Assembly: GCA_963787125.1 (NCBI GenBank)
Contig: CAWBBV010000001.1
Span: 32,001 to 96,000 of the forward strand
Reading direction: 5' to 3'
DNA: 64,000 nt
Source: an uncultured delta proteobacterium
GTDB taxonomy: Bacteria; Desulfobacterota; Desulfuromonadia; Geobacterales; DSM-12255
This document shows, in pieces, positions 20,610 through 44,643 of the stretch. The notes under the pieces were generated by a model that did not search any database, had not been told where the DNA came from, and saw nothing but the letters and a program-made list of their open reading frames with translations. Made by a program: the position numbers and the translations under genes. The first letter of the stretch is position 1, and each line of letters starts with the position of its first letter.

Positions 20610-23600
20610 GTGGGCAGATTAGCCATAATCCTGACATATTGCATCTTTTTTCTCTCCGGAGCAGCAGCCCTGATCTATGAAATAGTCTGGAGCCGTTACT
20701 TGAGCCTTGTTTTCGGCGGCTCGCACCTGGCTGTTACCACCGTGCTTACGGTGTTTATGGGGGGTCTGGCTCTGGGCAGTTACTTAATCGGCAGACGCGT
20801 CGATCGCTCTCACCAACTACTGCGGCTTTATGGTTGTCTGGAACTGGGGGTCGCAGCTGCAGCCCTGCTGTTTGTCGGCCTTTTGCAAATCTATCCGCCG
20901 ATCTATATCAAGCTTGCCCAACTGGTTCCTGAATCCACCCTCTACCTCTCCGCTATTCGCATCACCTTTGCCGTCATTGCCCTGATCATCCCCACAACCC
21001 TTATGGGCGGTACTCTTCCGGTTCTAACGGCATTCACAGCCCGCCTTTTGAGCGGTCCGGGGGTGCGCCTCTCCTTCCTCTACGGCTGCAATACCCTCGG
21101 CGCTGTCTGCGGTGCCGCGGCAACCGGTTTTGTCATGCTGCGCAGCTTTTCCATGGGTATAACCCTGGCTACCGCGGTGGGAATAAATATCTGCGTCGGT
21201 TTGGCCGCTTTTGCCCTGCAACGACTGGTAACAACGGCACCGGCTGCAGAGGCAGCAGCGGAAACGGCCATGGCAAGAGACGATCTCGATTCGGTTTCAA
21301 CGGGGCCTTTGCCTTTCAGGCTGGTACTCTGGGGTATCGGTGTGAGCGGTTTTTGTGCCATGGGGTATGAGGTTCTCTGGAACAGAATTCTGAGCATTGC
21401 CGTTGGCGCCAGCGCCTACGGCTTCACCCTGCTGCTCATGGCCTTTCTTTCTGGCATCGGCCTTGGGAGTGCCGCTTATGGCTTCCTGGGCAGGATCTCC
21501 ACCAGACTGCGCCGCCGGCCTCTCTCCTTGCGCACTGCTGTTACCGCCTTCGGCGCGGTCCAGCTGACAATAGGTCTGACAGCTTTTTTGGCAACGGTGC
21601 AGTTTCGCTATCTCCCTACCTATGTGGCGTTTCTGCATGATTACTTTCTTGCCCTCTTCCCCAAAGTTGATCAGTTCCAGGTAATACAGCTGGCCAATTT
21701 TGTGCTCGCCTTTGCCATCATGTTTATCCCGGCTTTTTTCATGGGGGTGGCCTTTCCCCTTGCCGGAGAGATCCACAGCCGCTGCCGCAGACAGGTCGGC
21801 GCTGCTGTTGGTGAGCTGCTCTCCTTCAACACAGTGGGAGCCATTCTCGGCGCCGGGGTCAGCGGATTTCTCCTTATCTACCTGCTCGGCATCCAGCGCT
21901 CGCTGCAGATCCTTATCCTGATCAACAGCGGCTACGGCCTGCTGCTGATAGTTGCTGCCAAAGGCGACAAAACCCGGCTGCGGCTGGCAATGCTGCTTGC
22001 TTTGGCCGCACTCATGGTGCCGATTGCCGCCCCTGCCGGGTGGCAGCTCTGGGATCCGAAGCTTTATGCCGTCTACCAGTCCAATAAACCCGAAGCCTAC
22101 GGAACTCCTGAAGAGGTCAGCGAGATGCTGGCCAATCTTGACGTCCGTTATTACAGTGAAGGGTCACAGGCCATTGTCAGCGCCGTCCAGTCGGCAGATA
22201 CGCTCTTTTTTATCACCAACGGCAGGGTGGAGGCTTCCAACACCCACCAGGACATGCAGTGCCAGTATGTCCTCGGTCATCTGCCCATGCTGCTCCACAA
22301 AAAGCCGCGGCAGGTCTTTGTTCTTGGTACCGGCAGCGGCATGACCCTGGGGGCGGTTTCGGTGCATCCAGGCGTGGAGAAGATAACCCTGGCTGAAATT
22401 GAGCCGGGGGTGCTGGGTGTGGCCAGGGTCTTCGGCATAGACAATCACTACATCCTCAACAAACCCGACCCGCGGCTGAAAGTTGTTTTCAACGATGGCC
22501 GTAACCACCTGCTGACGACCAAAGACCGCTTCGACGTCATTACCGCCGATCCGGTCCACCCCTGGTTTAGTGGCGCCGGTTATCTTTATTCAACCGAATA
22601 TTTCCGCCTTGCCAGCCAGCGGCTCAATCCCGGCGGCATTATCTGTCAATGGCTCCCCCTATATGAGCTGACTGCCGAGAATCTGCAATCGGTGGTCAGA
22701 ACAATCCGTGAAAACTTCGCCTATACCATGATCTGGGTAACCCACTACGATGCCGAGATTATTGCCAGCAACTCACCTATAATCATCGACGAAGAAGAGC
22801 TGGGGCGGCGTTTTGCAGTTGCAGGCATTGCCGAAGACCTGCGCCAGATCAGGATGGGGAGCCCGGAAGACTTCCTCAGTTATTTTGTTATGGGGAGTGA
22901 AGGCGCCAAAGCTTACAGCCGGGAAGGGCGGATTAATACCGACGATAATCTCTATCTGGAGTTCTCCGCTCCCCGCAGCATCGGCCTGGAGTATCTGCGG
23001 GGTGCCAACCTGGCAGGTCTTCTCCGGCACCGGGAGAAGCTGCTCCCTTACCTGCGCCGCCCGGTGAGCTCCCCGGCCGGCAACCTTCAGACGGCCCGCT
23101 GGGAGGCTAATCATCAGGCAGCGCTGCTGGAAGACAAAGTCCATCTGCTTGATGTCGCCGGCAAGCAGATGACTTACCAGTATACGGACATTGCCACCGA
23201 ACTTGACAATCGCTACCCCCGTTATGCGCCGTGGCGTTTCACCAAAGAGGAGTCGGGTGATGAAAGAGGCGGGGGCACAACTGTTTTGCAGGAATTGGAA
23301 ATTCCCTTGCTGGATGAGCATGAAGCGCCGCTGAAAGGGGCATTAATGGCGGTTCTCGTCCGCAAGAACAGTCGCCAGGCGCGGATTTTTTTCGTTGACG
23401 ATAACACCCGGACAGTCTTCGGCAAGCTGCGGGTAAAGGGATCGGGAAAAGACGCCTACATAGAGAAATTCGTTGCGACTGTTATGCAGGATGCCAAGAA
23501 AATCTACGCTGCCGAGGCGGCACAGGCGACAGCCACCGGGAAGATTGCCCCCTCAATGCTGACCGTATTTCCGAAGATTAAAACGCTGGTGGAGGCCAGG

Positions 23601-23615
23601 ATAGATCGGGAGTAA
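20610..23615 (+). CDS. Fused membrane (MFS-like)/spermidine synthase family protein
   Basis: FFLSGAAALIYEIVW N-terminus with many TM segments, then VLGTGSGMT, AEIEP, NDGRNHL, FDVITADP aminopropyltransferase-fold motifs. Confidence 0.9.
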   Translation: MGRLAIILTYCIFFLSGAAALIYEIVWSRYLSLVFGGSHLAVTTVLTVFMGGLALGSYLIGRRVDRSHQLLRLYGCLELGVAAAALLFVGLLQIYPPIYIKLAQLVPESTLYLSAIRITFAVIALIIPTTLMGGTLPVLTAFTARLLSGPGVRLSFLYGCNTLGAVCGAAATGFVMLRSFSMGITLATAVGINICVGLAAFALQRLVTTAPAAEAAAETAMARDDLDSVSTGPLPFRLVLWGIGVSGFCAMGYEVLWNRILSIAVGASAYGFTLLLMAFLSGIGLGSAAYGFLGRISTRLRRRPLSLRTAVTAFGAVQLTIGLTAFLATVQFRYLPTYVAFLHDYFLALFPKVDQFQVIQLANFVLAFAIMFIPAFFMGVAFPLAGEIHSRCRRQVGAAVGELLSFNTVGAILGAGVSGFLLIYLLGIQRSLQILILINSGYGLLLIVAAKGDKTRLRLAMLLALAALMVPIAAPAGWQLWDPKLYAVYQSNKPEAYGTPEEVSEMLANLDVRYYSEGSQAIVSAVQSADTLFFITNGRVEASNTHQDMQCQYVLGHLPMLLHKKPRQVFVLGTGSGMTLGAVSVHPGVEKITLAEIEPGVLGVARVFGIDNHYILNKPDPRLKVVFNDGRNHLLTTKDRFDVITADPVHPWFSGAGYLYSTEYFRLASQRLNPGGIICQWLPLYELTAENLQSVVRTIRENFAYTMIWVTHYDAEIIASNSPIIIDEEELGRRFAVAGIAEDLRQIRMGSPEDFLSYFVMGSEGAKAYSREGRINTDDNLYLEFSAPRSIGLEYLRGANLAGLLRHREKLLPYLRRPVSSPAGNLQTARWEANHQAALLEDKVHLLDVAGKQMTYQYTDIATELDNRYPRYAPWRFTKEESGDERGGGTTVLQELEIPLLDEHEAPLKGALMAVLVRKNSRQARIFFVDDNTRTVFGKLRVKGSGKDAYIEKFVATVMQDAKKIYAAEAAQATATGKIAPSMLTVFPKIKTLVEARIDRE
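23572..23615 (+). repeat. Direct repeat copy 1 (3' end of spermidine-synthase gene), left island boundary
   Basis: CGAAGATTAAAACGCTGGTGGAGGCCAGGATAGATCGGGAGTAA; 40/44 identical to 36782-36824. Confidence 0.9.
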
Positions 23616-23670: not shown

Positions 23671-24867
23671 TCACGTCAACGCCCGACGCTGCCTTTTCAG
23701 ATATCCGGCAAATCTCCCAATGCTGCCGTATCTGTGCAGAAGCAGGACGATCAGCTTCAAGCGGAGCTGCCATGGCGGGCTGCTCTGTTCAAGGGGAAAG
23801 CGGAGTTTCACCCCGTCAGCCGAGAACGCATCCAGTGTATGAGCAAGCAGGCGCTTTCCTCCTTCAAGACGGCTTTTTCTTCCGGACACGTCGAACGAGA
23901 CAAGCTTTGCAAAATGTCTGCTCACCTCAGCGTCATCTTTTGGCGTCAGCGGCGTATCAACACCAAACAGCTCACCTGTTGCAAAGAGAAAAGCATTCAC
24001 CGGCAGCAAAATCCCGTTATCCCTGCAGAACTTTTCGATCTCACGCCAATCGGCTGAAGTCCCGTAACGTCTGCAGAGCCAGGCGAAATGGAGCATCTGC
24101 TTCAGATCCAGCATACGCAGCTTGTAGTTTTCGTGGGATATTTCCGAGTGGAGGATGCAGTGGAGCAGTTGATGGCTTGGCGACATGGCAGCAAAGGAGA
24201 GCCCGTCACTCTCCCCCATGGCGCATGTTTGCCAGACATCACGGCTCGCCAGCAGCTGGAGATCACGTACCTCAAAGAGATCCCGGTGAAGCTCCAGGTG
24301 CACCGGCATCCCCTCCCTGACAAGGGGGGCATAATGCTTTGCCTTCCCGTTTTTCCAGAGCGCCACCATTTCCACATAGCTATCCGGGACGATATAACCT
24401 TCTGTTAAAAGCAGGGCGACAGCTTCGTCAGCCCGGCTCTCCGGAACGAGCAGGTCGATATCCATCATGAACCTGTCACCCAGATTCCCGTAAAGCCCGG
24501 TCAAAAGGGCTGCGCCACCCTTGAGGGGCATGGCAGGAATTCCGGCGCTGGCAAGGGTAGCGATAATTTCTTTCAGCTGACCAAGAATTGCTGCGTTGCG
24601 CTCCAGGTTCAGTTGATGCATTGCCTCCAGATACTCAAGAAACTGCTCTGGAAGGAGATTCTGCACCCCCTTGGCAAACACTGCGCTGTAAAGGGCTGGA
24701 GCAAGATTGGCGCAGTTGGCGAGAAAAGCTACCGCTTCCCAGTCGATCCGGTGGCTGTCATGCCCGGTGCAGAGCGGTTTAACAGCCGCTTCGTCCGTAA
24801 AGGGGGATAGTAGCTGGCATAGCAGAAGAAGAGACTGCGGAACCTTAATGCGTGCGGCAACGCTCAC
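23671..24867 (-). CDS. Nucleotidyltransferase family protein (NTP_transf_5-like)
   Basis: PLKGGAAL...R.MMDIDLLVP, LELH, DW motifs typical of RiPP/lasso-associated NTases; start overlaps kinase stop. Confidence 0.85.
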   Translation of the reverse strand: MSVAARIKVPQSLLLLCQLLSPFTDEAAVKPLCTGHDSHRIDWEAVAFLANCANLAPALYSAVFAKGVQNLLPEQFLEYLEAMHQLNLERNAAILGQLKEIIATLASAGIPAMPLKGGAALLTGLYGNLGDRFMMDIDLLVPESRADEAVALLLTEGYIVPDSYVEMVALWKNGKAKHYAPLVREGMPVHLELHRDLFEVRDLQLLASRDVWQTCAMGESDGLSFAAMSPSHQLLHCILHSEISHENYKLRMLDLKQMLHFAWLCRRYGTSADWREIEKFCRDNGILLPVNAFLFATGELFGVDTPLTPKDDAEVSRHFAKLVSFDVSGRKSRLEGGKRLLAHTLDAFSADGVKLRFPLEQSSPPWQLRLKLIVLLLHRYGSIGRFAGYLKRQRRALT

Positions 24868-26048
24868 TTCATCACCCCAGTCCCCTCCAGCAGCGTCAAC
24901 CCCTCGGCGGTCGATGCGTAGGTCAGGGCGTAGCGGTCAAGAGCCGCCAGCCAGTCGATGATGGCACTGACCCGCGTCTCATCAAGATCCGGGAGCTGAT
25001 AACCGGCGTCAAGGATTCTGCTCAGGCTCTGAACGATGCTCAGCCGCTGCGTTGTCCCACTGGTTCCTGCAATGAACTCGGGGAAGATGAGCGCATTGGC
25101 GTGGCAGCTGCTGCCGTTTTGGGCAAAGCGGATTGAGTCCGGCAGGAGGTACCTGATCCTCTGGCCGTCAAAGCGGATATGATCCTGACTGGTCGCCAGT
25201 AGTGGAAAGTCGGGGAGGATTACCGGCCAGCTCCCCTCCTTGATCCCCGGGGCAAGGGGCATGGCAAAAATAGAGCCGTCAGTAGCATCAATCACCAGCG
25301 GCTCATCGCTGACAAGCCCGTAACCTCTTGCAAGGAGCGCCATGGCAAAGGTGCTCTTACCCGCCCCGGATCTACCGGCAAGGAGCAGGCTCCTGCCGTC
25401 AGAACCGCAGACAGCGCTGCCGTGGATGGTGAGCAGATGGGGCTGCTTTTGGTAGGCAAAAACCCGCAGCTGCCCGTAAATGTTTGGCAGAAGCCGCTTC
25501 GCAGCCAGAGGCTCACCGCTCTCCTTACCATTCATCAGAATCTGCCAGACATCCCCTGCCGCCTCAATCGTGACGACAAGCTTCACTGTGTCAGCGGTTG
25601 CTCCAAGAAAGGGGGCGATAAACGGCGTGATCCAGCGCTGCAACAGCTCTTCGTCACCAACAATGGTAAAAACCGTATTAAGCAGAGAGTAGCAGGGGAA
25701 CTCATCAGAAAGGGGAAACTCGCACTGCGGTGAGTTCAGGTAATCGGGGTATTCGCCATCCAGCGGCTCGCTCCCTGCCAGAATGGCGGCCAGTTCCATA
25801 ACCCCCGGCAGCGACTCTTCTGGCAGTTGTAGATCCATGGCAAGATCATGGACGCTCTCCCCCTGCTCAAGGCGCAGCAGCACCACGGTAGCTGTCCGGT
25901 CAAGGCCGTAAAGCTTTTTGCTTTGCTTTGAAAAAAGCACTGACTCTTCCCCCAGAAGGAAAAGAGTCAGGCTATTGTTAAGTGATAATTTTTCACAGAC
26001 GGGCAGAGAAATTTTACAGCCCCCCTGAATCAGACGGAGTTGATGCAC
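24864..26048 (-). CDS. PqqD/RRE-like N-terminal domain fused to HPr-kinase-like P-loop kinase
   Basis: ESVLFSKQSKKLYGLDRTATVVLLRL (RRE-like); IHGSAV, GRSGAGKST, LVSDE (HprK-like). Start uncertain: GTG 26048 or in-frame ATT 26012, 7 nt after a G-rich RBS. Confidence 0.8.
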   Translation of the reverse strand: MHQLRLIQGGCKISLPVCEKLSLNNSLTLFLLGEESVLFSKQSKKLYGLDRTATVVLLRLEQGESVHDLAMDLQLPEESLPGVMELAAILAGSEPLDGEYPDYLNSPQCEFPLSDEFPCYSLLNTVFTIVGDEELLQRWITPFIAPFLGATADTVKLVVTIEAAGDVWQILMNGKESGEPLAAKRLLPNIYGQLRVFAYQKQPHLLTIHGSAVCGSDGRSLLLAGRSGAGKSTFAMALLARGYGLVSDEPLVIDATDGSIFAMPLAPGIKEGSWPVILPDFPLLATSQDHIRFDGQRIRYLLPDSIRFAQNGSSCHANALIFPEFIAGTSGTTQRLSIVQSLSRILDAGYQLPDLDETRVSAIIDWLAALDRYALTYASTAEGLTLLEGTGVMK

Positions 26049-26211
26049 ACGCCCTCTTTGCCGTAGTTGGCGACATCAACAGATAAACCCCAACCGCACT
26101 CCCGACGGCATATTTGCCAAAGCGCTTGATGAACTCCCGCCGCACCATTTCAGGGGATTTCTCAGCATCAGCCCCTTCTGTTTTACTGTTTTCATTCGCT
26201 TCAATCATCAC
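26014..26211 (-). CDS. 65-aa putative precursor peptide with twin-arginine-like leader
   Basis: GGAGG RBS; RREFIK, hydrophobic stretch, A-C-A then short Ser/Thr-rich tail STPSDSGGL; directly upstream of RRE-kinase. Confidence 0.75.
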   Translation of the reverse strand: MMIEANENSKTEGADAEKSPEMVRREFIKRFGKYAVGSAVGVYLLMSPTTAKRACASTPSDSGGL

Positions 26212-26219
26212 AGATCCTC

Positions 26220-26615
26220 CTATTTTGCCACATCACTTCGGATAGCAGGTTTTTTGACAGCTTGCTTCATGGTTACAGTCACAGGTGTGGACAATCCCCC
26301 TACGAAACCATCCCTTTTAGCGGCAACCGCAAAGGTGAGCTGCTCTGCGCTGCCAGTTTCAGTAAAAAGGTAATCAGTCTGCGACCCGTGGAGGTCAATC
26401 CAGCGGGAATCAGGAAGCAGCCTGTCCCCGCTCTCAAAATATACCCGGTAACTCGCACCTAGTCTTACCGGCCTCCAGGAAAGCATAACCCCGTCACCCG
26501 TTTGTACCCCTTTGAGCGCAGTAACTTTCTCAGATCCGTGCCTGTGCCCAAACGGAGACGCAAACAGACTGGTTGCCGTGAAGATCATCAATATTGTTAA
26601 AATCAATTTTTTCAT
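26220..26615 (-). CDS. Secreted single FN3-like domain protein
   Basis: Sec signal MKKLILTILMIFTATSLFA; VMLSW...A.YRVY...TDY...LTFAVAA FN3 pattern. Confidence 0.7.
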   Translation of the reverse strand: MKKLILTILMIFTATSLFASPFGHRHGSEKVTALKGVQTGDGVMLSWRPVRLGASYRVYFESGDRLLPDSRWIDLHGSQTDYLFTETGSAEQLTFAVAAKRDGFVGGLSTPVTVTMKQAVKKPAIRSDVAK

Positions 26616-26632
26616 CTACCCCTCCGGTAAAG

Positions 26633-27496
26633 CTAGTTGTTGATTACAGTTTTGAGTCTTCTGCCTTCCTGATCGTAATAGGTGAGGCCGGGATTGCCGG
26701 GGATAAGCAGTGAAACCCCTGAACTGCCACGGGCAGCGTCAACATCGGTTTTGATATAGAACCTGACCACCAGTTCGGCAACAGCACTGTTTGGGGTGTA
26801 ATCCCAGCTGAAGTAGAACTTTTTGGTACGGCTGCCGTTGAATGCCCAGTCTCCGGCTACTGAGGAGAGCGGAAGCAGACTGCCTGATGTGGCAAGCTTT
26901 TCACCATAGCTGTTGCCGCAACTGCCAGCAGCTTTGCCGCTGCAATCAAAGATGGCAACCTCGGAGAGGTAGCTGGCATCATACCCCTCCAGAGTCCAGG
27001 AAATGGTGGCCTGGTTATTTCTCGTCATGACAGGAACCGTTGCTGCGGCAAGCACAGCCGGCATCCGCTGCTGCGCCTCTGCAAGCGGGGCGGCACTGTT
27101 GGTCAGCCAAGCGGTAAGCACCGGCGTATTTGTGGAGCTGGATGACACCTGCAACAGCGCACTCTTTGTCCCCTGGCTGGCAGGTTTGAAACTGACTGAA
27201 ACCGTGCAGCTAGCGTGGGCCGCCAGAGTGCCGGTGCAACTGTGCGGATGAAGGTCAAACTCTGCCGGATTTATCCCGGCAAGGGCAATACCGCTTACGT
27301 TCATGGCTGTCCCGGTAAGATTTGTAATGGTAAAATCCACCGGTGTTGAATCATTTCCAAGGGCTGTCACCGGAAACTGCCTCACCGCCGGATAGATGGC
27401 GATCTGGCTGTCCTGAACAACATCGGCTGCCGATGCCGGAGTGACAGATGCGTTGCAACTGAATATCAGAAATGCTGCAAGAATATACTTTTTCAT
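26633..27496 (-). CDS. Secreted protein: choice-of-anchor-D/ASH-like Ig domain plus C-terminal domain shared with upstream adhesin
   Basis: Sec signal; FTITN.G...C...LA...SCTVSVSFKP...G.KSA.L motif; C-terminal half aligns by eye to adhesin C-terminus. Confidence 0.8.
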   Translation of the reverse strand: MKKYILAAFLIFSCNASVTPASAADVVQDSQIAIYPAVRQFPVTALGNDSTPVDFTITNLTGTAMNVSGIALAGINPAEFDLHPHSCTGTLAAHASCTVSVSFKPASQGTKSALLQVSSSSTNTPVLTAWLTNSAAPLAEAQQRMPAVLAAATVPVMTRNNQATISWTLEGYDASYLSEVAIFDCSGKAAGSCGNSYGEKLATSGSLLPLSSVAGDWAFNGSRTKKFYFSWDYTPNSAVAELVVRFYIKTDVDAARGSSGVSLLIPGNPGLTYYDQEGRRLKTVINN

Positions 27497-27507
27497 AGTT
27501 CTCTCCT

Positions 27508-30500
27508 TTACGGTGCAACCGCATGCTTCAGCCGTCTGCCGCTGAGGTCGTAGTATTCAGTGCCTGATTGCAGCAGGTTCCCAGGGATCAGGAGCGAAAG
27601 GCTCCCTTTTCCGGCGGCATCGTCTGCTGCGGTTTTACGGTAGAAGCGGATGACCATGTCAGTTGCCGATGCCGGAGCCGTGAAGGTGTAACTGTAGTTG
27701 AACTGATTTGAGGTAACACCGTTATAACTCCAGCTGCTTGCGTTTGTGCTGACGGCCGGGAGATTTCCCGAGTCGGAAAAATTGCTGGCAAAGCTGTCAC
27801 CGCAGGTTCCGGCTGGAACCCCTGCACAGTTGAACAGCGCAATCCGTGAGAGGTAATCGTCGTCATAGCCAAGCAGCGACCAGGTGATGGTGTACTGCTG
27901 ACCGGGTTGGATCGTGGTTGGAATATTCAGTGCTGAAAGCACCGACGGAATCCGTCTGGCGGCCTCCTCCTGAAGCGTCTCATGGTTATAAAGGAATGCT
28001 GTGACTGTCATGCCGTCATGGGGGATCTCAAGCTGGGCTGATTTTGACCCCTGGGTAGCAGCACCCGGACAGAACTTGACGCCAACTGTACAGCTTGCGC
28101 CAGCGGCAACTGCCTGGCTTGAGCAGTTATCCCCCGAAATTGTGTACTCGGCAGCATCATTCCCCCCTTTGCCCACAGTGCCAAAGGTAACGGAAGCAGC
28201 CGATCTGTTGGTGACAGTGAACGGAATCTCCCCGCTACAGCTACCTTGCGCCACCACACCAAACAGATGGCGATCAGGCGAAACTGCAATGGCGGTATCA
28301 AGGGCTGAGAGGCTGCTGATGTTGGCAGCGGCGGCAACCGTCATGGTAAAGCTCTGGTTGGCATTCCCCTGGCTGTTTGTGGCAATGATGAAAATGGCAA
28401 AACTTCCACTTACATTGGGTGTACCGGAGATGGTGGCCGTGCCGTTGCCATTGTCATGGAAGCTGACACCGGCTGGCAGAGCGCCTGTACGTTTAAGCGC
28501 AGCCGTGGGGTTGCCGGTGGCGTTTACGGTGAAGCTGCTGCCGACGCCGTAGTTCCAGCTGGCGCTGTTGGCGGATGTGATGGCAGGAGCCGCCAACGCA
28601 GCAGCAGTGGTAAAGGTCTGGTCAGCGCCATTGGTTGTGCCGGAGAGGCTGCTGGCAACGGCACGGAAATGGTACGTGGTTAAAGCTGTCAGGCCGGAGA
28701 CAGCAAGGGAGACCGGAGTATTGGTCACGCCGGAGACTGTTGCTGGCGAAGCCGCAATACAGCCGCTGCCGTAGGAGGCGGTCGCTCCATACTCGAAACA
28801 GACCGTACTGTCGGCATTATTGGCATTCACCGTCCCGTTCATGGTGGCGGCGGAGGTGGTAACGCCACTGACTGCATCGGTGGTGACGGTCGGCACAGGA
28901 ATGTAAGTAAACATGATCATCTCGCTACTTATGCCGCCTGGTGAAGTGACGACCACGCTATTGTTTGGCCCCGTGCCAGCCGGTGTGGTGAGTGTAATCT
29001 GAGAGTCACTGACAACTACAACATTCGAAGCTGCTGCTCCGCCAATGGTGACTCCGGTCGTTCCGGTGAAGCTCGTGCCGGTGATGGTTACGCTGGTTCC
29101 CCCGGCAGCAGTCCCGCTTGACGGCGAGATACCGGTAATGACCGGAACCTCAGTTAGATCATTGATGGTAATGGTGAAGGCCTTCTCGAAGTACAGCCCA
29201 CCCTGGTCAGTGCTGCGAACCCGGACAGAGTAACTGCTCTTGACCTCATAGTTCGGGCTGTTGGTTATCCGCAGATTATCGACGCTGATATTGAAGGAGG
29301 CGTTGTCGGTGCTGCCGGTGCCGCTGACGAGGGTGTAGGTGAAGGTGTTACCTGCATCCGGGTCGGTGGTGCTCAGGGTGCCTACGGTGGAGTTGGCCGC
29401 CACGTTCTCGTCGATTGAGCTGGCAGAAAAGCTGATGTCGGTCGGGGTAGAGTTATAGGTAAACAGGCCGGCGCCAGTACCAGTGCCGCCGGGTGTGGTG
29501 ACCGCCACATCTCTGACTCCGAGCGTGCCGACTGGCGTGGTGGCCGTTATAGTGGTGGCGTTGACTACCGTTATCCCGGCGGCGGCACTGCCGCCAATGG
29601 TGACGCTCGTCGCCCCGGTGAAGTCGGTGCCGCTAATGGTGACAGTGGTTCCGCCAAGAGGAGATCCGCTGGCAGGTAGAATGCTGCTGACAGTCGGCGC
29701 AGGAATGTAGGTGAACAGGGTAGTCCCGCTACTGAAACCGCCCGGTGATTTAACGACCACACTGTTGTTTGAGCCTGTGCCAGCCGGTGTAGATAGGGTA
29801 ATCTGAGTGTCACTGACAACTATTACGTTAGTTGCTGCTGCTCCGCCAAAGGTGACTCCGGTCGTTCCGGTGAAGCTCGTGCCAGTGAGGGTTACGCTGG
29901 TTCCCCCGGCAGCGGGTCCACTTGGCTGCGAGATACTGAAAATGACCGGAGTCTCCAGCAGATCATTGATGGCGATGGCGAAGGGCTTTTCGAAGTATAA
30001 TCCGCTCTGATCGGTGCTGCGGATACGGACGGAATAGCTGTTTTTCACCTCGTAGTTGGGACTGCTCGTGATCCGCAGGCTGCTGCCGCTGATGTTGAAG
30101 GAGGCGTTGTCCGTAGATCCGGCTCCGGACACAAGGGTGTAGCTGAAGGTTCCTCCATCCGGGTCGGTGGTGCTCAGGGTGCCCACGGTGGTGTTGGCAA
30201 TGACGTTTTCGTCGATTGAGCTGGCAGACAGGGCGATGTCGGTTGGGGCTGCGTTGCATGCTCCGGTCGTGAAGGTGGCATCCGAGCCGTTGCTGGTGCC
30301 ACCGGTGCTGATCCCTTTAGCCCGGAAGTGGTAGGTGGTGTTGCAGGTTAGTCCCGACACAGCTGCCGAGACCGCTGTATTCGAAGCGCCGCTAACCGGG
30401 CTCTGGCTGGCGGTTATTGAACTGCCATAACCGGTGGTCAACCCGTAGTCGAAGGTAACGGTGCTACTGTAGCCGTTGGCGTTAACCGTGCCGTTCAGGG

Positions 30501-32091
30501 TCGTGCCGGTGGATGTGATGCTTGTTGCCGTGCCGGTAGTGGCAGTAGGAGGATTCGTGGTAGTCACTGATACGGTGTTGGTGTAGTACGTATGATGCAA
30601 GCCGCTGTACCCGCGAACCCGGTAATAATAAGTCGTTCCTGCGCTGAGCCCTGTCACGGAGTAGGTAAGCAGATTCCCCACATCCAGACCCCGATACCCG
30701 GTAACCATGGCTGTAAACGCTGTATCAGTGGCCACATCCAGCAAGTACCCGGTTGCGCCGGTCACTGTGTTCCAGTTGGCACTGAACCCGCTTCCGGTTA
30801 TGCCCGAGGCGGCTGTGGCCACCGGCAATGTCCCCAGGTATTCGGTGGCGCCTTTTTCGGACGTCGCACCGGCGCGTAGATAGCCGCGCCCATCCACAAA
30901 CACACTGCCGTTGCTACTAACCGGGTTAATCGCCAGGCTGCCTGCATTGGGCAAATGAGATGAGACATACCCGCCGTTTCCGACCAGGTTGGCCAGGCTG
31001 GCGTTTTGCGGGAACCCTTCGGTTCCCCGTACGTCGCCGGTGCCCCAGGTATAATAGGCGTCATTACTTCCTACGGAACCGATCAGATTGTAGCCGCCGG
31101 ATATAAACGTAAAAGTGATTCCTCCTGAATAGAGACCGGTTGGGTCAAAATAAATATCCGAATCTCCTCCGCCCGTGGTTGCAACGTTCCCGGCCACCAC
31201 CGTATTTTTCAGCGTAAAAGTGCCGCCCGGCGTCGGAATGCCTGAATTATTATACACCGAGAGCCCTGCTTCCCAGGAATTGCTGCCATTAGTGGAATAA
31301 TTCTTGGTAATGGTGCAATTGATCACGTTGAAGCTGCTGTTGCCAAAATGGGCAACCACGCCCTGATTGTCCGAAGTGTTACCCGAAAAGGTACAGCCTT
31401 CCAGGGTTACGACTTTCCCAACGGAACGTTCATGCAATGCACCTCCCTGGTAAGCCGAATTACCTTCAAACGTACTGTCCACTACGGTCAGGGTGCCCAG
31501 GTTATCAATGGCCCCGCCGTACCCCTGTCCAGGAGGGAGATTAGGACCCATAGGTACTGAATTCTGGTAAAAATAGGAACGCAGAACTGTGAGGGTGGCT
31601 GTTGCTGCCACACTAATGCCTCCTCCGTAGGTACTACTCATTGAGTGATTGAGCGAACAATTGTTGATCTTGCAGCGGTCCAGGGTCAAATTGGCTAATC
31701 CGCCCAGGCGAATTCCTGCTCCGGTCTCCGAAGCCACGGCGCTCCGTCCGTTGCTGATGGTAAGGTCAGAAATGGTGATTGTCCCGGCAGTAATGTCAAA
31801 CACGCGCACCGCATTGTTACCGTTAATAGTAAGGCTGGCAACGCCCGGACCTTTGATGGAAAGGTTTTTAGCGATGGATAACGTTGAGGAGAGGGTAATG
31901 GTTGCCGGATAGGTGAGGTTGAACACAACCGTATCACCCGCCGTAGCATTGGTGATGGCTAGACGCAGACTGCCCGCACCGGAATCTGCCGTAGAGGAGA
32001 CCGTTTGGGTTGCCGAAAAAGCAGGAAGAGCGAGCCCTCCCAAGAGCATACTGACCATTAGACTCAATTTAACCCATTTCAGCAGATTCAT
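27508..32091 (-). CDS. Large Ser/Thr/Gly-rich surface adhesin (beta-helix/choice-of-anchor-Q-like, FN3, cadherin-like, IPT/TIG, Ig, ASH domains)
   Basis: GAGGGG RBS, ATG 32091, Sec signal; DSGAGSLR.AI, F.GN.A..GGA repeats, FN3 (GLSAGTTYYYRVR), cadherin (PTDI.LS...DEN...DPD...NYE), three IPT/TIG repeats. Confidence 0.88.
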   Translation of the reverse strand: MNLLKWVKLSLMVSMLLGGLALPAFSATQTVSSTADSGAGSLRLAITNATAGDTVVFNLTYPATITLSSTLSIAKNLSIKGPGVASLTINGNNAVRVFDITAGTITISDLTISNGRSAVASETGAGIRLGGLANLTLDRCKINNCSLNHSMSSTYGGGISVAATATLTVLRSYFYQNSVPMGPNLPPGQGYGGAIDNLGTLTVVDSTFEGNSAYQGGALHERSVGKVVTLEGCTFSGNTSDNQGVVAHFGNSSFNVINCTITKNYSTNGSNSWEAGLSVYNNSGIPTPGGTFTLKNTVVAGNVATTGGGDSDIYFDPTGLYSGGITFTFISGGYNLIGSVGSNDAYYTWGTGDVRGTEGFPQNASLANLVGNGGYVSSHLPNAGSLAINPVSSNGSVFVDGRGYLRAGATSEKGATEYLGTLPVATAASGITGSGFSANWNTVTGATGYLLDVATDTAFTAMVTGYRGLDVGNLLTYSVTGLSAGTTYYYRVRGYSGLHHTYYTNTVSVTTTNPPTATTGTATSITSTGTTLNGTVNANGYSSTVTFDYGLTTGYGSSITASQSPVSGASNTAVSAAVSGLTCNTTYHFRAKGISTGGTSNGSDATFTTGACNAAPTDIALSASSIDENVIANTTVGTLSTTDPDGGTFSYTLVSGAGSTDNASFNISGSSLRITSSPNYEVKNSYSVRIRSTDQSGLYFEKPFAIAINDLLETPVIFSISQPSGPAAGGTSVTLTGTSFTGTTGVTFGGAAATNVIVVSDTQITLSTPAGTGSNNSVVVKSPGGFSSGTTLFTYIPAPTVSSILPASGSPLGGTTVTISGTDFTGATSVTIGGSAAAGITVVNATTITATTPVGTLGVRDVAVTTPGGTGTGAGLFTYNSTPTDISFSASSIDENVAANSTVGTLSTTDPDAGNTFTYTLVSGTGSTDNASFNISVDNLRITNSPNYEVKSSYSVRVRSTDQGGLYFEKAFTITINDLTEVPVITGISPSSGTAAGGTSVTITGTSFTGTTGVTIGGAAASNVVVVSDSQITLTTPAGTGPNNSVVVTSPGGISSEMIMFTYIPVPTVTTDAVSGVTTSAATMNGTVNANNADSTVCFEYGATASYGSGCIAASPATVSGVTNTPVSLAVSGLTALTTYHFRAVASSLSGTTNGADQTFTTAAALAAPAITSANSASWNYGVGSSFTVNATGNPTAALKRTGALPAGVSFHDNGNGTATISGTPNVSGSFAIFIIATNSQGNANQSFTMTVAAAANISSLSALDTAIAVSPDRHLFGVVAQGSCSGEIPFTVTNRSAASVTFGTVGKGGNDAAEYTISGDNCSSQAVAAGASCTVGVKFCPGAATQGSKSAQLEIPHDGMTVTAFLYNHETLQEEAARRIPSVLSALNIPTTIQPGQQYTITWSLLGYDDDYLSRIALFNCAGVPAGTCGDSFASNFSDSGNLPAVSTNASSWSYNGVTSNQFNYSYTFTAPASATDMVIRFYRKTAADDAAGKGSLSLLIPGNLLQSGTEYYDLSGRRLKHAVAP
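28897..30249 (-). repeat. Internal duplication of cadherin-like + IPT module in adhesin gene
   Basis: Copies at ~29701-30249 and ~28897-29448 with long identical DNA runs. Confidence 0.85.
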
Positions 32092-32239
32092 TTTCCCCTC
32101 CGGATTTTCCGAATACGTCTGGTCACCGATATCTTCCTGACTGACCGTGTAATGCCTTGAATTAGTTAGGTTTAATTTCATGAGACAGAGGCGTCTGAAG
32201 GGGGTAGAGAAGAGATCTCTCCCTCCAGACAGAAATCAC

Positions 32240-32794
32240 CTACGACCTTGTTGGATATATTCCCATAACCGCAATACAGAGCAGCACCGGCAGATAGGGC
32301 TGCATGTTGTCATGTGGAACCGGTCCGGTTGCTGTTCCCGCCTGCTGCACAGCATCGGCGGCCAGTTGAGTACTGTTCGGTTGTGCCTGATAGCTGCTCG
32401 TCGGGGTGAACACCCTTCCTGACTGATTTCCCCCTTTGGAAAAATAGCTGTTCGCCACCGTCGCCAGACTGGCATTGGCAGTTGAAACCGCATTCAAGCC
32501 ATGACTATGGGGTGGGAAATTGCTTCCCGTCAAAGAAACCGAGGCGGTGCCGACAACATTGCCCCAGTTTCGCGGGGTCAGCCCCGGCCCTGTGCCGACG
32601 TCCATGGGTGCTCGCCCCGACAGGTTCGGCAGGCAGAAGTTAATCTTGCCGTCACCGCCAAAGGCGACCCCCAAAAGGGAATAGAGCGCCGAGTTCTGCT
32701 GGATCTGCATAATCTGGCCGTCGCAGGTCGCCCAACCTAATGGGGCATAGTTAAAGGCAAAAGCCCGTATTTCTCCGATAAATGGATCAGCCAT
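32240..32794 (-). CDS. Phage tail-collar domain protein (microcystin-dependent-protein-like), paralog 3
   Basis: PFIGEIRAFAFNYAP.GW..CDG...LYSLLG..FGGDG...F.LPNL.GR; HSH; HDNMQP; ends PTRS. Confidence 0.9.
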   Translation of the reverse strand: MADPFIGEIRAFAFNYAPLGWATCDGQIMQIQQNSALYSLLGVAFGGDGKINFCLPNLSGRAPMDVGTGPGLTPRNWGNVVGTASVSLTGSNFPPHSHGLNAVSTANASLATVANSYFSKGGNQSGRVFTPTSSYQAQPNSTQLAADAVQQAGTATGPVPHDNMQPYLPVLLCIAVMGIYPTRS

Positions 32795-32812
32795 GTCAAA
32801 TTCTCCTTGTGA

Positions 32813-33331
32813 TCAAGATCTTGAGGGCCAGAGGCCGGTCAGGGCAATGCAGAAGTTGATGGTTAATGATGGCTGCATGTTGTTGTGCCCGGCAGAGCCC
32901 CCCGCTGGCGAGAGAGCCCCGGCTGCCATGGTTGCTGCCGGTGACGCCTTTGCTGTTGCGTAGGTGGTTTTGCCCGTATCTGCCACAGCTGCCAGAACAG
33001 CCCCCTGGGGCATATTGTTGCCACCGGCAAGGGAGTTGGCCATCAGGGCATGGGTATGGGTCGGCAGTTGGGAGGTTGCCGACAGGGCAACGGCCTCGGC
33101 TCCGCCCGGTTTCCCTTCAAGGTAGGTAGCGTTGGCATGGAGCAGAGTCCGCCCGCGGAAGTCGGGGAGCTTGAAATTTGCTATGCCGTCGCCGCCGTAG
33201 GTGGTGCCGATCAGGGAGAAGAGTGCATTGTTCTGACTGATCGATAAGGTCTGCCCGTCACAGGTTGACCAGTACTGGGGGGCAAAGTTGAAACTGAACA
33301 GCCTGATTTCACCGATAAATGGTTCTGCCAT
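32813..33331 (-). CDS. Phage tail-collar domain protein, paralog 2
   Basis: PFIGEIRLFSFNFAP, ALFSLIGTTYGGDG, LPDFRGR, HTH, HNNMQPSL; ATG 33331 with AGGAG RBS. Confidence 0.9.
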   Translation of the reverse strand: MAEPFIGEIRLFSFNFAPQYWSTCDGQTLSISQNNALFSLIGTTYGGDGIANFKLPDFRGRTLLHANATYLEGKPGGAEAVALSATSQLPTHTHALMANSLAGGNNMPQGAVLAAVADTGKTTYATAKASPAATMAAGALSPAGGSAGHNNMQPSLTINFCIALTGLWPSRS

Positions 33332-33350
33332 AAAGTTCTCCTTTTTATCC

Positions 33351-33872
33351 CTAGGATCTTGTGGGGAAATAGCCGTTTGTGGCAATGATGAAGCTTATAC
33401 ACTGGGCCGGCATCAGATTGGAGTGGGGCTGGGCCGGAGTAGGTGGTGAAGATCCCACCGATGCCTGATTCATGAGGCTGTCCGGAGCTGCTGCCGAATA
33501 GAGATTGAAACCGCTGCTGTCTCCAGGGTAGTTCCCCCCGGGAGCCGCGACTGTCCCCGGGCCGCCAGCGCTGATTGCGTGGCTGTGGGCAGGAGTATGG
33601 ACAACTTGCAGGGTTTCGTTCTCCGTGCCGAATGAGTTGCCGATGGTTCTTGGTGTCAGCCCGGTTCCAGTCCCCATGTGCACCGGAACGCGCCCCCTCA
33701 GATCCGGCAGATTGAAGTTGGTTGTCCCGTTTCCACCGTAGGTTGTGCCGATTGCTGCAAATAGCACATCGTACTGACTGATCTGCAAGAGGCTGCCATC
33801 GCAGAAAGCCCAGTCCATGGGGGCGAAATTCCCCCCGAACATCCGTATTTCACCTACAAATTGATCACTCAT
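33351..33872 (-). CDS. Phage tail-collar domain protein, paralog 1
   Basis: FVGEIRMFGGNFAP, IGTTYGGNG, LPDLRGRVP, HSH, HSNLMP; ends PTRS. Confidence 0.9.
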   Translation of the reverse strand: MSDQFVGEIRMFGGNFAPMDWAFCDGSLLQISQYDVLFAAIGTTYGGNGTTNFNLPDLRGRVPVHMGTGTGLTPRTIGNSFGTENETLQVVHTPAHSHAISAGGPGTVAAPGGNYPGDSSGFNLYSAAAPDSLMNQASVGSSPPTPAQPHSNLMPAQCISFIIATNGYFPTRS

Positions 33873-33949
33873 CGTTTTCCTCCTTTTTGTTGGAAAATCA
33901 AATTCGCTTCACCGGCTGTTCACTGCTCCTTCCCTGCCATTTACGATGA

Positions 33950-34246
33950 TTACCCCCGAGGCGCGCTGAATACCGCCTGGTAATAGACCGCATCACTTCT
34001 GCCGGTATGGACCGGGCCGATAAACAGCTCCATCTCCCCCATGACAGGGTGCTTTACAAGGTGCGTGTCGTGCCAGAATACGGGGTTTTCGCAACTCCTG
34101 AAGAGCAGTGAAAAGGCGCTGAGCGAGCTAGAGCTCATATCCTTTACTTCGGCCAGTTCCATTGTTACCGGCTCCATACCTGCCGCTGCCACCTGAAATG
34201 CTGTCGTGATATGTGGCTCGAAATCTTCTATTTTGAAACCTGCCAT
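33950..34246 (-). CDS. DUF6916-like small protein
   Basis: FSLLF...HP.MG...LF..P......YQAVF pattern recalled for the small protein accompanying tail-collar triplets. Confidence 0.7.
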   Translation of the reverse strand: MAGFKIEDFEPHITTAFQVAAAGMEPVTMELAEVKDMSSSSLSAFSLLFRSCENPVFWHDTHLVKHPVMGEMELFIGPVHTGRSDAVYYQAVFSAPRG

Positions 34247-34278
34247 GCTTTTATCCTCTCCTTGAAAATTGATCGGTG

Positions 34279-34827
34279 TCAGGCTGCATCCAGATTTGCA
34301 GCTGGCGGCCGCACCATGAAATAATAGACTTCCTTGTCTTCGCTGATCCGGAAACCGAGTCGCTGGTAGTAATCGAGCACCGGGTTGTTCTTCTCCACAT
34401 GGAGGCTGACCGGTATGCCGACACTGTCTGCCTCCTTCAGCAGGGCTTTCAGGAGCGCACTGGCAATGCCACGGCGCCGGAATTCAGGGAGCAGGGCGAC
34501 GTCAATCAGCCGGTAATCGTCAATATTGCGATTAACATAGAATCGCCCGGCCGGAACTCCATTCTCCATGATCATGTCAAAGCTGGGGTTTTGGTAATTG
34601 ACCATGTACTGGTTGTGCTGGAGGTTGAACTGCATCCGCAGAAACTGCTGCCACTGCTCTTCCGGCCAGTTGACCAGCTCCTTCTCTTCGGTACGGGTGG
34701 AAGCATAGAGCCTGAAGAGGAACTCCAGATCTCCATCGGTAATTAGACGTAGGCTGATAATGGCATTCCCGGATTCAGAAGATGATCTCTTTGCCTGTTG
34801 TATTGTCGTGTCCATACGTTCAGTCAT
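34279..34827 (-). CDS. GNAT family acetyltransferase
   Basis: DVALLPEFRRRGIAS acetyl-CoA motif, LHVEKNNP...YQRLGF; LYASTR.EE N-terminus; start may be 34815. Confidence 0.9.
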   Translation of the reverse strand: MTERMDTTIQQAKRSSSESGNAIISLRLITDGDLEFLFRLYASTRTEEKELVNWPEEQWQQFLRMQFNLQHNQYMVNYQNPSFDMIMENGVPAGRFYVNRNIDDYRLIDVALLPEFRRRGIASALLKALLKEADSVGIPVSLHVEKNNPVLDYYQRLGFRISEDKEVYYFMVRPPAANLDAA

Positions 34828-34844
34828 TAGCGTTAAGTCACAAA

Positions 34845-35195
34845 TCAGCTTTTAGGTAGTATGAAAGAAGGAAGGACGAGTTGACTGAACGACCCGTTTC
34901 CGCTCAGTTCAGCCTGCCCCAGCCAGTTGATGTTGACATTGATCTGGCCGCCACCCTCATATCGGAAAACCACCTCTTCACCATGGAAGCTGATCAGTAC
35001 CCCCCACGTTGCCTTACTGAACCCGCCGATCTGTTTATCCCCGATATCCTGGAAATTAATTTCAGTAAGGCCGGGAATGCTGATGATTCCGTTGCCAAGA
35101 GCCTCCGGCCAGGTTATGGATTGTCCGGGATCCAGAATCTCTTCCAGCACGGTGATCCTTTTGTAGTAACTGTTCTTGACGGTCAGATTCCACAT
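34845..35195 (-). CDS. Hypothetical protein (beta-rich, 116 aa)
   Basis: AAGGAG RBS, co-oriented in gene run; no motif recognised. Confidence 0.65.
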   Translation of the reverse strand: MWNLTVKNSYYKRITVLEEILDPGQSITWPEALGNGIISIPGLTEINFQDIGDKQIGGFSKATWGVLISFHGEEVVFRYEGGGQINVNINWLGQAELSGNGSFSQLVLPSFILPKS

Positions 35196-35242
35196 AGCTT
35201 TCTCCTTGGTTACTTTTGTATTTACGTTGCCGTTTGACGGTT

Positions 35243-36058
35243 TTAAATATCAGAATACTTTTCCGGGAACCGCTCTCGCCGCAGCCGCGCAACCATGGCT
35301 ATCATCTGCGGGTAGTCGAACTCATCAGGCATCAGCAGCGGCAGGGCAATGTTTTCGCTAACTGTCTTATGTACGGCAACCTCCCATGCAAGGCTTGAAT
35401 AGTCCGTTTCCATAGACATGGCATGGATTGTCAGCTCCTGACCCCAGTAGTAGATCCGGTCGGCCTGCACATTGGCCTGCATGCGGCGCACCTCATCAAG
35501 GGTCTGGGGCTCCTCCAGGCAGCGCCAGATGTCGGCATAGAGGAAATTCACCGGTAGATCCGGCTGCCATTCAAGGGCATCGGCACGGATTATCCTGATC
35601 TTGCTGTTGATCTCTTCAGGCAGGCCGTCCCGCGCCCCGGAGAGCCCGAACAGTTCTATCACCTCCGGATCCCGCTCGATGATGGTCACCATAATCACCT
35701 TCGGATTGAGGGCCATGTTGATTGCCACCCACCCCATGCCGAGACCCATGACCACCGTATGCCCCGATGCATGGCGGCACCCCAGCTCCTGGCTCTCGAT
35801 CTCATGGGGGGAAAGTGACATCCAGGTTTCCCACTCTGCACCATTGCTGCCGCAGTCACGCATCAGCACCGGCATCCCTTGCACCATCCAGAGACCGCTG
35901 CAATAGCCGCGATCAAGGCAGAAGCCTGTTCTGGACAGACGCCATTTGCCGATGCTTCCTTCAATGTATGCGGGCATATAGTGGTCGGAGGTAAAGAGGG
36001 GGACGCCAAGCAATCCGGTCAGTTGATTCTGGTCAAAATCTGTTTTATCTCTAAGCAT
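35243..36058 (-). CDS. Class I SAM-dependent methyltransferase-like protein
   Basis: VVMGLGMGW motif I, VTIIERDPEVI acidic motif, ADAL, LYADIW. Confidence 0.7.
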   Translation of the reverse strand: MLRDKTDFDQNQLTGLLGVPLFTSDHYMPAYIEGSIGKWRLSRTGFCLDRGYCSGLWMVQGMPVLMRDCGSNGAEWETWMSLSPHEIESQELGCRHASGHTVVMGLGMGWVAINMALNPKVIMVTIIERDPEVIELFGLSGARDGLPEEINSKIRIIRADALEWQPDLPVNFLYADIWRCLEEPQTLDEVRRMQANVQADRIYYWGQELTIHAMSMETDYSSLAWEVAVHKTVSENIALPLLMPDEFDYPQMIAMVARLRRERFPEKYSDI

Positions 36059-36299: not shown

Positions 36300-36782
36300 T
36301 TAATTAGCCAGCCCGCTGCTCACAAGGTGACATGTGCTACACCCGTCAGAACTGGCAAAAACCCCGCTTTCCGTCCCGGCGTAGAGGGTGCCGTAGCCGT
36401 CGATCAGCAGTGACAAGATTTTTGTGTCTGCCAGACTGCCGCAGGCGCTCCAGCGACCGCCGCTGTCGCTGCCCTTGAAAACCCCGCTGCTGTAAACGGC
36501 AGCATAGAGATTTGCCGCACTCTTAACAATCGCTTTTACCCGGCTGTTCAGAGGCAGATTTGAACTTGCAGCTGTCCAGGCGCTGCTGTCGTCTTTCTTC
36601 CAGACCACATCGCCGTCAAAACCTGCATAAATACTGCTGACATCAATGAAAATCACCAGCGGCGGTTTTGTAGCATTTACTGTCAGCCCGGCATTGACTG
36701 GGCTCCATGAGTTACAGTCCCGAGTTGAGTAAATCCCCCCTTCGCTTCCAGCATAGAGATTGCCAACCGGAGCTATCTCCAC
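36300..36782 (-). pseudogene. 5'-truncated BNR/Asp-box beta-propeller fragment
   Basis: Repeated LYAG..GG.Y.S.D....W motifs; no signal peptide or RBS; ORF starts exactly at the direct-repeat junction. Confidence 0.7.
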
Positions 36783-41346: not shown

Positions 41347-41379
41347 GCAATTACGCTATTATTGCAAATGTGGAGATTT

Positions 41380-41955: not shown

Positions 41956-41960
41956 ACGTC

Positions 41961-44542: not shown

Positions 44543-44643
44543 TTTATGGTGTGGATCCATATCGAGGTAATGCTCGCAATGGTAATGAGAGACTGACCAT
44601 TCCGTGGAGATGCACGAGATGGTTTAGATGATGGAGGATTGCA

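Follow-up and report, generated by a model that had tools for sequence, protein, structure and literature searches.

The block studied here occupies positions 23671-36058 of a window of 64,000 nucleotides from an uncultured delta proteobacterium; the window is the whole stretch of DNA analysed, and coordinates refer to it. The block is filled by thirteen open reading frames (ORFs), all on the minus strand (Table 1): a collar cassette, a giant secreted protein with a shorter paralog, and genes for an FN3-like protein, a small peptide, a kinase fused to a putative recognition element (RRE) for RiPPs (peptides made by the ribosome and modified after translation), and a nucleotidyltransferase. An earlier, sequence-only reading had put these genes forward as a candidate undescribed system; it had written of twelve genes but listed thirteen, and thirteen co-oriented ORFs were found. 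From g01 to the nucleotidyltransferase, the gaps between neighbours are 47, 17, 32, 77, -35, 18, 58, 11, 17, 8, -35 and -4 nt, and the first -35 nt gap, before collar paralog B, becomes +16 nt if translation starts at the ATG at 33334. As judged from the sequence, this packing fits one operon. From the comparison of related loci, we conclude that the collar cassette (32240-36058) and the kinase module (23671-32181, giant gene included) are two separately travelling modules that meet here at one giant surface-protein gene.

Table 1. Features of the block in gene order (window coordinates; aa, amino acids)
Feature	Position	Strand	Basis
g01, 271 aa, Rossmann/methyltransferase-fold (spermidine-synthase-like)	35243..36058	minus	PHROG methyltransferase, 4.3e-8
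g02, 116-aa ORF	34845..35195	minus	no family assignment
GNAT acetyltransferase	34279..34827	minus	Acetyltransf_1, 2.5e-13
DUF6916 protein, 98 aa, without signal peptide	33950..34246	minus	PF21880, 1.5e-22
Collar paralog A	33351..33872	minus	PF07484, 1.5e-29
Collar paralog B (likely true start ATG 33334)	32813..33385	minus	PF07484, 2.7e-27
Collar paralog C	32240..32794	minus	PF07484, 1.1e-23, and weak Gp10_C match
Giant secreted protein, 1557 aa: beta-helix, fn3, cadherin, TIG and module-specific C-terminal unit	27508..32181	minus	Pfam, NCBIfam
C-terminal ~265 residues of the giant protein, unit common to the 287-aa paralog and all related modules	27508..28314	minus	alignment A2
287-aa secreted paralog (partner): two Ig-like beta-sandwiches and conserved tail	26633..27496	minus	choice-of-anchor D, 2.3e-16
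131-aa secreted FN3-like protein	26220..26615	minus	weak similarity to position-matched fn3 proteins in L003/L008 and L012
Precursor-like peptide, 65 aa: polar N-terminal part, then RRxFIKRFG, a hydrophobic core and a short tail containing an invariant Ser-Asp	26014..26211	minus	conservation
HprK-like kinase fused to RRE (PqqD-like), 394 aa	24864..26048	minus	sub-threshold families and fold
PF14907 (NTP_transf_5) nucleotidyltransferase, 398 aa	23671..24867	minus	2.9e-41

Homologues of the kinase were collected by a word-indexed protein search, followed by scans of genome and metagenome contigs. The protein search returned only 11 close homologues (44-51% identity), and the 14 related loci together with the window make up 8 lineages when grouped by the DNA identity of the kinase gene. 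We compared the 13 window proteins with the 14 loci by tblastn. Matches were confined to the C-terminal unit of the giant protein, the partner, the peptide, the kinase, the nucleotidyltransferase and, in L003/L008 and L012/L013, the FN3-like protein. No tblastn match in these loci was obtained for g01, g02, GNAT, DUF6916 or the Collar proteins, and the Collar domain was absent from all three other whole genomes carrying the kinase module.

The collar cassette is likewise found without the kinase. DUF6916 is carried by 6 of the 401 genomes of the phylum sample and 4 of the 21 of the family sample, the window's genome included. A close kinase occurs in one genome of the former, the window's own, and in two of the latter, the window's own and G804, which lacks DUF6916; accordingly, none of the other DUF6916 genomes has one (0/5 in the phylum sample, 0/3 in the family sample). 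In the same-genus genome G806, g01, GNAT, DUF6916 and collars A-C stand in the order of the window at 76-94% identity, and are followed by a giant protein of 1505 aa whose domain types are common with those of the window protein but not collinear with them. This 20-kb locus gave no match to the partner, the FN3-like protein, the peptide, the kinase or the nucleotidyltransferase, and the whole G806 genome is devoid of the kinase. The entire block is missing from the syntenic interval of G806, which runs from a SpeE-like gene (72% identity) to GatB (91%). In the other genomes and loci compared, collar cassette and kinase module thus do not co-occur, and as they recur separately, the claim of a single system is not supported. 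Both behave as independent accessories of giant genes, which makes the adhesin gene their meeting point and not evidence of one machine.

Within the kinase module, the peptide, kinase and nucleotidyltransferase genes stay together in each related locus of sufficient extent. In most cases, genes for a giant secreted protein and for its ~290-aa secreted paralog stand before this trio; the two proteins have in common a ~265-residue C-terminal unit of two Ig-like domains. In L007 the trio follows a tetratricopeptide-repeat gene, and there is no giant or partner gene within 1.4 kb. Two further loci deserve mention. On one metagenome contig (L012/L013), the whole module is present in tandem with a period of 12.4 kb, each unit having giant, partner, double-fn3 protein, peptide, kinase and nucleotidyltransferase; a fragment of a sigma-54 activator lies upstream of these modules. 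The kinase of L012/L013 is split over two frames (two high-scoring segment pairs), which indicates a frameshift or a sequencing error. G804, a member of the window's genus, has a divergent pair of kinase and nucleotidyltransferase at a contig end (L043; 45% and 37% identity to those of the window), and this pair represents a second lineage of the kinase module in the genus.

The giant protein has a NosD-like beta-helix and fn3, cadherin, TIG and 'choice-of-anchor' Z and Q domains (Pfam, NCBIfam). Its passenger part is unrelated between loci, where DUF285 repeats, a DUF11/GEVED/beta-helix combination, a DUF5122 propeller or Flg_new/cadherin domains are found instead. The C-terminal unit, on the other hand, has 48-50% identity with the ends of the giant proteins in L001/L002 and, over longer stretches, 40-43% identity with those in L003/L012; its alignment (A2) has 39 invariant positions. 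A 'partner protein' had been named in the sequence-only reading; it proved to be a paralog of the last ~265 residues of the giant protein (39% identity), and the two share a strongly conserved tail, YYD..GRR. Six of the 8 lineages have the partner (those of the window, L001, L002, L003, L004/L010 and L012). Its AlphaFold2 model (pLDDT 76.6) had only generic Ig-like matches in Foldseek (ASH/PapD/HYDIN). The window's own genome contains no paralog of the second half of this partner/giant C-terminal unit, and weak look-alikes of its Ig part; the five DUF6916 genomes of the phylum sample similarly have look-alikes for the Ig part of the partner and none for the second half. Sec-type signal peptides could be read from the translations of the giant, 287-aa and 131-aa proteins. 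The label 'FN3 protein' for the last of these stands in part: the protein has no Pfam match of its own, but its L003 counterpart, at 26% identity, has an fn3 match (6.9e-8). It is not found in L001 or L002 by tblastn. We also considered a chimeric giant gene, with its 5' part from the collar cassette and its 3' part from the kinase module; the giant protein of G806 has common domains in another order, and the proposal is unsupported as stated.

The small peptide, already noticed as Tat-like from the sequence, is a real gene. It is preceded by an AGGAGG ribosome-binding site and has 32-54% identical counterparts in other phyla. It is present in 7 lineages (L009 holds a partial copy), its gene runs into the start of the kinase gene in the window and in L001, L002 and L003, and it has no paralog in its own genome. 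In alignment A3, residues R24, R25, F27, R30, F31 and G32 are invariant, followed by L45, S47 and T50 and, near the end, by S60 and D61; the N-terminus is variable and polar, and the core after RFG is uncharged. By this pattern the peptide looks like a textbook twin-arginine (Tat) signal with only 7-11 further residues: a polar n-region, RRxF[IV]K, an uncharged core of 13-15 residues and a basic c-region. Small residues at -3/-1 stand directly before the Ser-Asp in some of the close peptides (by eye), which would place the serine 2-5 residues past a signal-peptidase cut. TatC is encoded in 4/4 module-bearing genomes.

The assignment of the kinase as RRE-fused was weakened by family scores below the Pfam and NCBIfam cut-offs; it is backed by the fold and by homologues elsewhere, which show a clear PqqD match. 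At the N-terminus of the window protein, Pfam gave PqqD with an E-value of 0.0082 only. In its model (pLDDT 77.8), three strands and three helices are arranged as in an RRE and are followed by a domain like those of phosphoenolpyruvate (PEP) carboxykinase and HprK. The C-terminal domain of HprK has a PEP carboxykinase-like fold, and the best Foldseek matches of the C-terminal domain of our protein were PEP carboxykinases and HprK/P. The P-loop and the LVSDEP motif are kept: S227, G228, G230, K231, S232, T233, S247, D248, E249 and P250 are invariant in alignment A1, so that all positions of LVSDEP but the first two are constant. A search of PDB sequences with the kinase profile yielded mostly P-loop matches. 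There is no paralog of the kinase in its own genome. The nucleotidyltransferase follows the kinase in each related locus of sufficient extent, and a PDB sequence search with it gave nothing useful. A second PF14907 gene of the same genome (G000:C6:111899-112654, 8.6e-50) is a weak paralog, 29% identical to it. From their translations, neither enzyme has a signal peptide. No peptidase family was detected among the 13 proteins (Pfam, NCBIfam), and the block has no ABC transporter gene, the sole ABC_tran match being the P-loop of the kinase.

We modelled the complex of kinase and peptide. The ipSAE values were 0.90, 0.91 and 0.88, compared to 0.02 for the best control; among 80 solved complexes the mark used is attained by 58, and among 110 mismatched pairs by 2. 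At least 72% of the contacts are common to the runs, and the partner pLDDT is at least 65. Kinase residues 43-56 are predicted to contact peptide residues 41-47, with the RR/F/RFG positions (23-24, 27-28 and 31-32) also in contact, and peptide residues 48-59 extend toward the kinase domain. The model supports a predicted binding of the peptide to the RRE.

We next asked how far this arrangement extends among more distant kinases. A profile search of 1.84 billion representatives returned 681 proteins at E<=1e-30, of which many are full-length, so that kinases of the fused type are common, whereas those of the close subfamily are rare. The eight more distant kinase loci present in two phylum samples were scanned with a twin-arginine regular expression fixed beforehand. 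Small Tat-like ORFs adjoined the kinase in 6 of the 8. By eye, all six peptides have a small residue at -1; in five the site is of the AxA type and in L036 there is an L at -3. A stricter filter, tuned after the first matches, required the motif together with at least 13 uncharged residues in a row, in an ORF of 35-130 aa. It gave 10 matches in the 70 kb surrounding 14 kinases (same strand), none in the remaining 367 kb of the loci and 13 in the window's genome (8.4 Mb, both strands); it misses L003, L035 and L036.

Four of the distant loci, as well as L035 and L050, have bona fide HPr-rel-A kinases (TIGR04352; 245-360 bits, cut-off 200), and TIGR04353 'peptide chaperone' matches were obtained in both loci tested, L034 and L037. 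The order Tat-like peptide, PqqD, kinase was seen in all six loci passing TIGR04352, with L035 and L050 read by eye; the L050 contig ends within the kinase gene. A PF14907 nucleotidyltransferase follows the kinase in L033, L034, L036 and L037, and none was found in L035. Several loci of HPr-rel-A type adjoin PEP-CTERM or polysaccharide genes. At L031 (G239:C119), a Tat-like 65-aa ORF precedes an RRE-fused kinase, with a radical SAM gene and a PMT_2 glycosyltransferase upstream and no adjacent nucleotidyltransferase. Our literature search, which left subscription journals outside, found no publication on HPr-rel-A, HprK-related kinase, TIGR04352 or TIGR04353, and no Tat-type RiPP leader was described among the matches listed. 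The RRE survey literature that we examined made no mention of kinases.

The closest described system is the family of linear polyphosphorylated peptides (LPP; PMC13381572, 2026), encoded by lppA-K-B-S-D-N, described as restricted to Bacillota and of unknown function. As presented there, the leader has the motif YxxPxVLxHQxIxFETxxS, core Ser3 is polyphosphorylated, and the target of the kinase is an internal serine, three residues past the leader cut. LPP and the window module are alike in an HprK-like kinase (RRE-guided in LPP, and by prediction in the window), an 'uncharacterised NTP transferase', a linear ribosomal peptide and the lack of a lasso cyclase, and both lie among cell-surface genes; the window's counterpart of the LppN-type NTP transferase is assigned from its PF14907 match and not from a comparison with LppN itself. 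The differences are several. LPP has a discrete RRE (LppB), a SpI-like (SipW-type) leader peptidase and an MsbA-like export pump, whereas in the window the putative RRE is fused to the kinase and the block contains neither a peptidase nor a pump. The leader is of YxxP type in LPP compared to RRxFIKRFG and a hydrophobic core here, and the hosts are Bacillota compared to Desulfuromonadales-like bacteria and Acidobacteriota. The window module, unlike LPP, is accompanied by a giant secreted protein together with the paralog of its C-terminal unit.

The HPr-rel-A loci of Acidobacteriota examined here share with the window the set and order of peptide, PqqD, kinase and PF14907 nucleotidyltransferase. 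The window kinase differs in missing the TIGR04352 cut-off, in the fusion of its RRE and in that TIGR04353 was undetected at its N-terminus; the peptide tails past the likely cut are 7-11 residues in the window type and 20-70 in HPr-rel-A.

An analogy of the kinase and nucleotidyltransferase with the tailoring enzymes of paeninodin-type lasso peptides, drawn in the sequence-only reading, holds up. A review (PMC8498205) reports that HPr kinase homologues phosphorylate the C-terminal Ser hydroxyl of lasso precursors and that, in pseudomycoidin, a nucleotidyltransferase adds a hexose to that phosphate; the window has a kinase and nucleotidyltransferase pair of this kind. The lasso pathway also includes a macrolactam cyclase (asparagine-synthase-like) and a B2 protease, neither of which occurs among the 13 proteins or the scanned flanks, and, unlike in paeninodin, the conserved serine of the window peptide is not the last residue.

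We consider it fairly probable that the block is a composite operon of two modules, and that the kinase module carries out a peptide tailoring related to LPP and HPr-rel-A. In the mechanism that we propose, the RRE would bind the peptide leader by its hydrophobic core while the kinase would phosphorylate a serine of the tail, most likely the invariant Ser of Ser-Asp, and the nucleotidyltransferase might extend the phosphate as reported for pseudomycoidin. The leader would double as a twin-arginine signal, with export by the housekeeping Tat route and trimming by a general signal peptidase, which would account for the missing peptidase and exporter of the module. Once exported, the peptide would encounter the giant protein and the paralog as well as the FN3-like protein, which carry Sec-type signals. 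Its role there is a guess: it may be a ligand, an anchor or a maturation cue for the shared C-terminal unit.

TorD, DmsD and NapD are proofreading chaperones that bind Tat signals. By analogy, a cytoplasmic holder may keep the twin-arginine signal until the cargo is finished; unlike those chaperones, the proposed holder would be a PqqD-type RRE fused to a modifying enzyme, and the cargo would be a few residues long. A more general and more tentative proposal, possible but not one that we would call probable, is that HPr-rel-A and its RRE-fused relatives form a Gram-negative class of phosphopeptides. In this class a true Tat signal would serve as RiPP leader, the RRE would hold it during phosphorylation and extension of the tail, and Tat with signal peptidase would replace the peptidase and pump of LPP; the released phospho(glyco)peptide of 7-70 residues would act on the surface, here on the two-Ig unit. 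With the window module, the LPP idea, published as restricted to Bacillota, is extended to Desulfuromonadales-like bacteria and Acidobacteriota, in an architecture with a fused RRE, no peptidase and no pump. The small peptide with a Tat-type leader is also a concrete candidate substrate for the HPr-rel-A system. If correct, this would be a RiPP route with a general export signal as recognition leader, undescribed in the literature searched.

Several observations weigh against the interpretation of the kinase module as peptide tailoring and against the separation of the two modules. Phosphorylation, export and cleavage of the peptide are all steps that we infer. The kinase falls below the cut-offs of both its families, with 26 bits for Hpr_kinase_C (6.9e-6; Pfam cut-off 33.3) and 76.1 bits for NCBIfam HprK_rel_A (2.4e-21; cut-off 200). 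NCBIfam TAT_signal_seq does not match the window peptide, and the -3/-1 site before Ser-Asp is present in only 5 of the 8 close peptides. The complex model was built with small alignments of our own, and its pass may echo a likeness to solved RRE-leader complexes. In PMC13381572, LppN is described as inactive in the heterologous host, so that the chemistry proposed for the window nucleotidyltransferase is tentative. The close module is known from three whole genomes and a handful of contigs, so that the counts are small. On a 3.2-kb contig of G087 (L024), DUF6916 and a collar gene are directly preceded by an HprK-like kinase (303 aa, without RRE) and a Sulfotransfer_1 gene; collar genes are missing from four paralogous HprK-like loci in relatives of that genome, so that the kinase-collar tie comes from this single contig. 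Finally, the operon-like packing of all 13 genes means that the collars may still work with the giant protein in this one strain.

Three other explanations were weighed. The peptide could be the substrate while its twin-arginine look is a recognition motif for the RRE only, the product staying inside or leaving otherwise. The modelled contacts, which include the RR/F/RFG positions in addition to the hydrophobic core, are in line with this, as are the failure of TAT_signal_seq on the window peptide and the three of eight close peptides without a clear signal-peptidase site. On the other side, the layout of the peptide agrees with a Tat signal throughout, the six distant peptides found by the regular expression all have a small -1 residue, the L033 peptide matches TAT_signal_seq, and the module has neither exporter nor peptidase although its companion proteins are all secreted. 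We regard this explanation as rather doubtful.

It is unlikely that the small ORF is not a substrate at all but a Tat-exported or membrane-anchored mini-protein, with the enzymes acting on the C-terminal unit before export, on a glycan or on a lipid. In favour of it, the giant protein and the partner share a strongly conserved tail, the invariant serine of the peptide is not C-terminal as in paeninodin, and its modification is something that we infer. These points are opposed by the Sec-type signals of giant, partner and FN3-like proteins compared to the signal-less enzymes, by the L007 trio that stands apart from giant and partner, by the complex model passing its controls, and by the order peptide, PqqD, kinase in 6/6 HPr-rel-A loci.

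Very improbable is one integrated surface device in which the collar trimer, GNAT, DUF6916, the giant adhesin and a tailored peptide needed for assembly or anchoring act together: the 13 co-oriented genes with gaps of -35 to +77 nt, the separate vicinity of each module to giant surface proteins and the arrangement in L024 favour it, but Collar is absent from the module-bearing genomes (0/3) and the close kinase from the other DUF6916 genomes (0/5 and 0/3), G806 has a near-identical cassette beside a different giant protein and no kinase, and the four paralogous loci in the L024 relatives are collar-free.

With the composite operon as the favoured reading, the collar cassette is to be described in its own right. 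In the window, three ordered Collar paralogs, GNAT and DUF6916 make up the cassette, which adjoins a giant secreted protein and has no virion genes among the ORFs scanned around it; the arrangement GNAT-DUF6916-A-B-C-giant is also found in G812 (same family) and G255 (same order). The nearest relative of each collar elsewhere is the paralog in the equal position, and the order is fixed. Collar A is 94% identical to its counterpart in G806, 65% in G812 and 64% in G255; collar B 91% in G806 and 68% in G255; collar C 76% in G806 and 64% in G255. GNAT keeps a constant position in the cassette (76% in G806, 58% in G812, 51% in G255), and DUF6916 is 81% identical between the window and G806. No publication on DUF6916 was found in the searched literature.

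As judged from sequence, g01 is a local member of the collar cassette: that of G806 begins with a 90% identical copy, and those of G255 and G812 lack it. Its label as methyltransferase stands on the PHROG match and on its Atlas look-alike ('spermidine synthase family', score 0.99), while Pfam, NCBIfam and PDB sequence searches were empty. For g02, no Pfam or NCBIfam or PHROG match and no relatives were found; its best Atlas score was 0.81, and its match in G806 is limited to the last 19 residues. For the other genes, Pfam agrees with the earlier assignments of GNAT, DUF6916, three Collar proteins, a large surface protein and NTP_transf_5.

The Collar proteins have PHROG tail-fibre matches, and among their closest studied relatives, by Pfam names, are the fibre tips gp12/gp10 of phage T4. 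The virophage DSLV2 has a heterotrimeric tail, according to its report (PMC12724248), and like the window it has three distinct Collar-domain proteins; this likeness comes from the Collar domain and not from a sequence comparison. Unlike T4 and DSLV2, the window cassette has no virus genes nearby among the ORFs scanned. The absence of phage capsid, sheath, tube and baseplate families, claimed before, was confirmed for the 29 ORFs that the scan covered from 13.4 to 46.7 kb of the window. The C-terminal serine of the collars was examined as a candidate target of the kinase and rejected. All three window collars end in Ser, but so do two of three in G806, which has no kinase; in other cassettes the last residue is P, Q, N, G or A, and the three other genomes with the kinase module lack collars altogether.

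The flanks of the block are housekeeping or unrelated genes: a sigma-54 activator, a fusion of major facilitator superfamily (MFS)-like and spermidine-synthase-like parts, a PEMT-like gene, GatB, GatA and a type I restriction-modification system. The sigma-54 promoter consensus had 32 matches in the window, compared to 40.8 expected, with none upstream of the operon. Directly upstream of the block (36300-36782), a 160-aa ORF has repeated Gly/Ser/Tyr-rich units like propeller blades and no Pfam or PHROG match. The fusion (20610-23615; 1001 aa) joins an MFS-like membrane domain to a spermidine-synthase domain; a paralog of 48% identity lies elsewhere in the genome (G000:C5:42165-45125), and relatives have orthologues. 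The type I restriction-modification locus (41362-46708) has an apparently split specificity gene, in the order 197-aa Methylase_S fragment, HsdM, RhuM-family and Bro-N proteins, and 406-aa HsdS.

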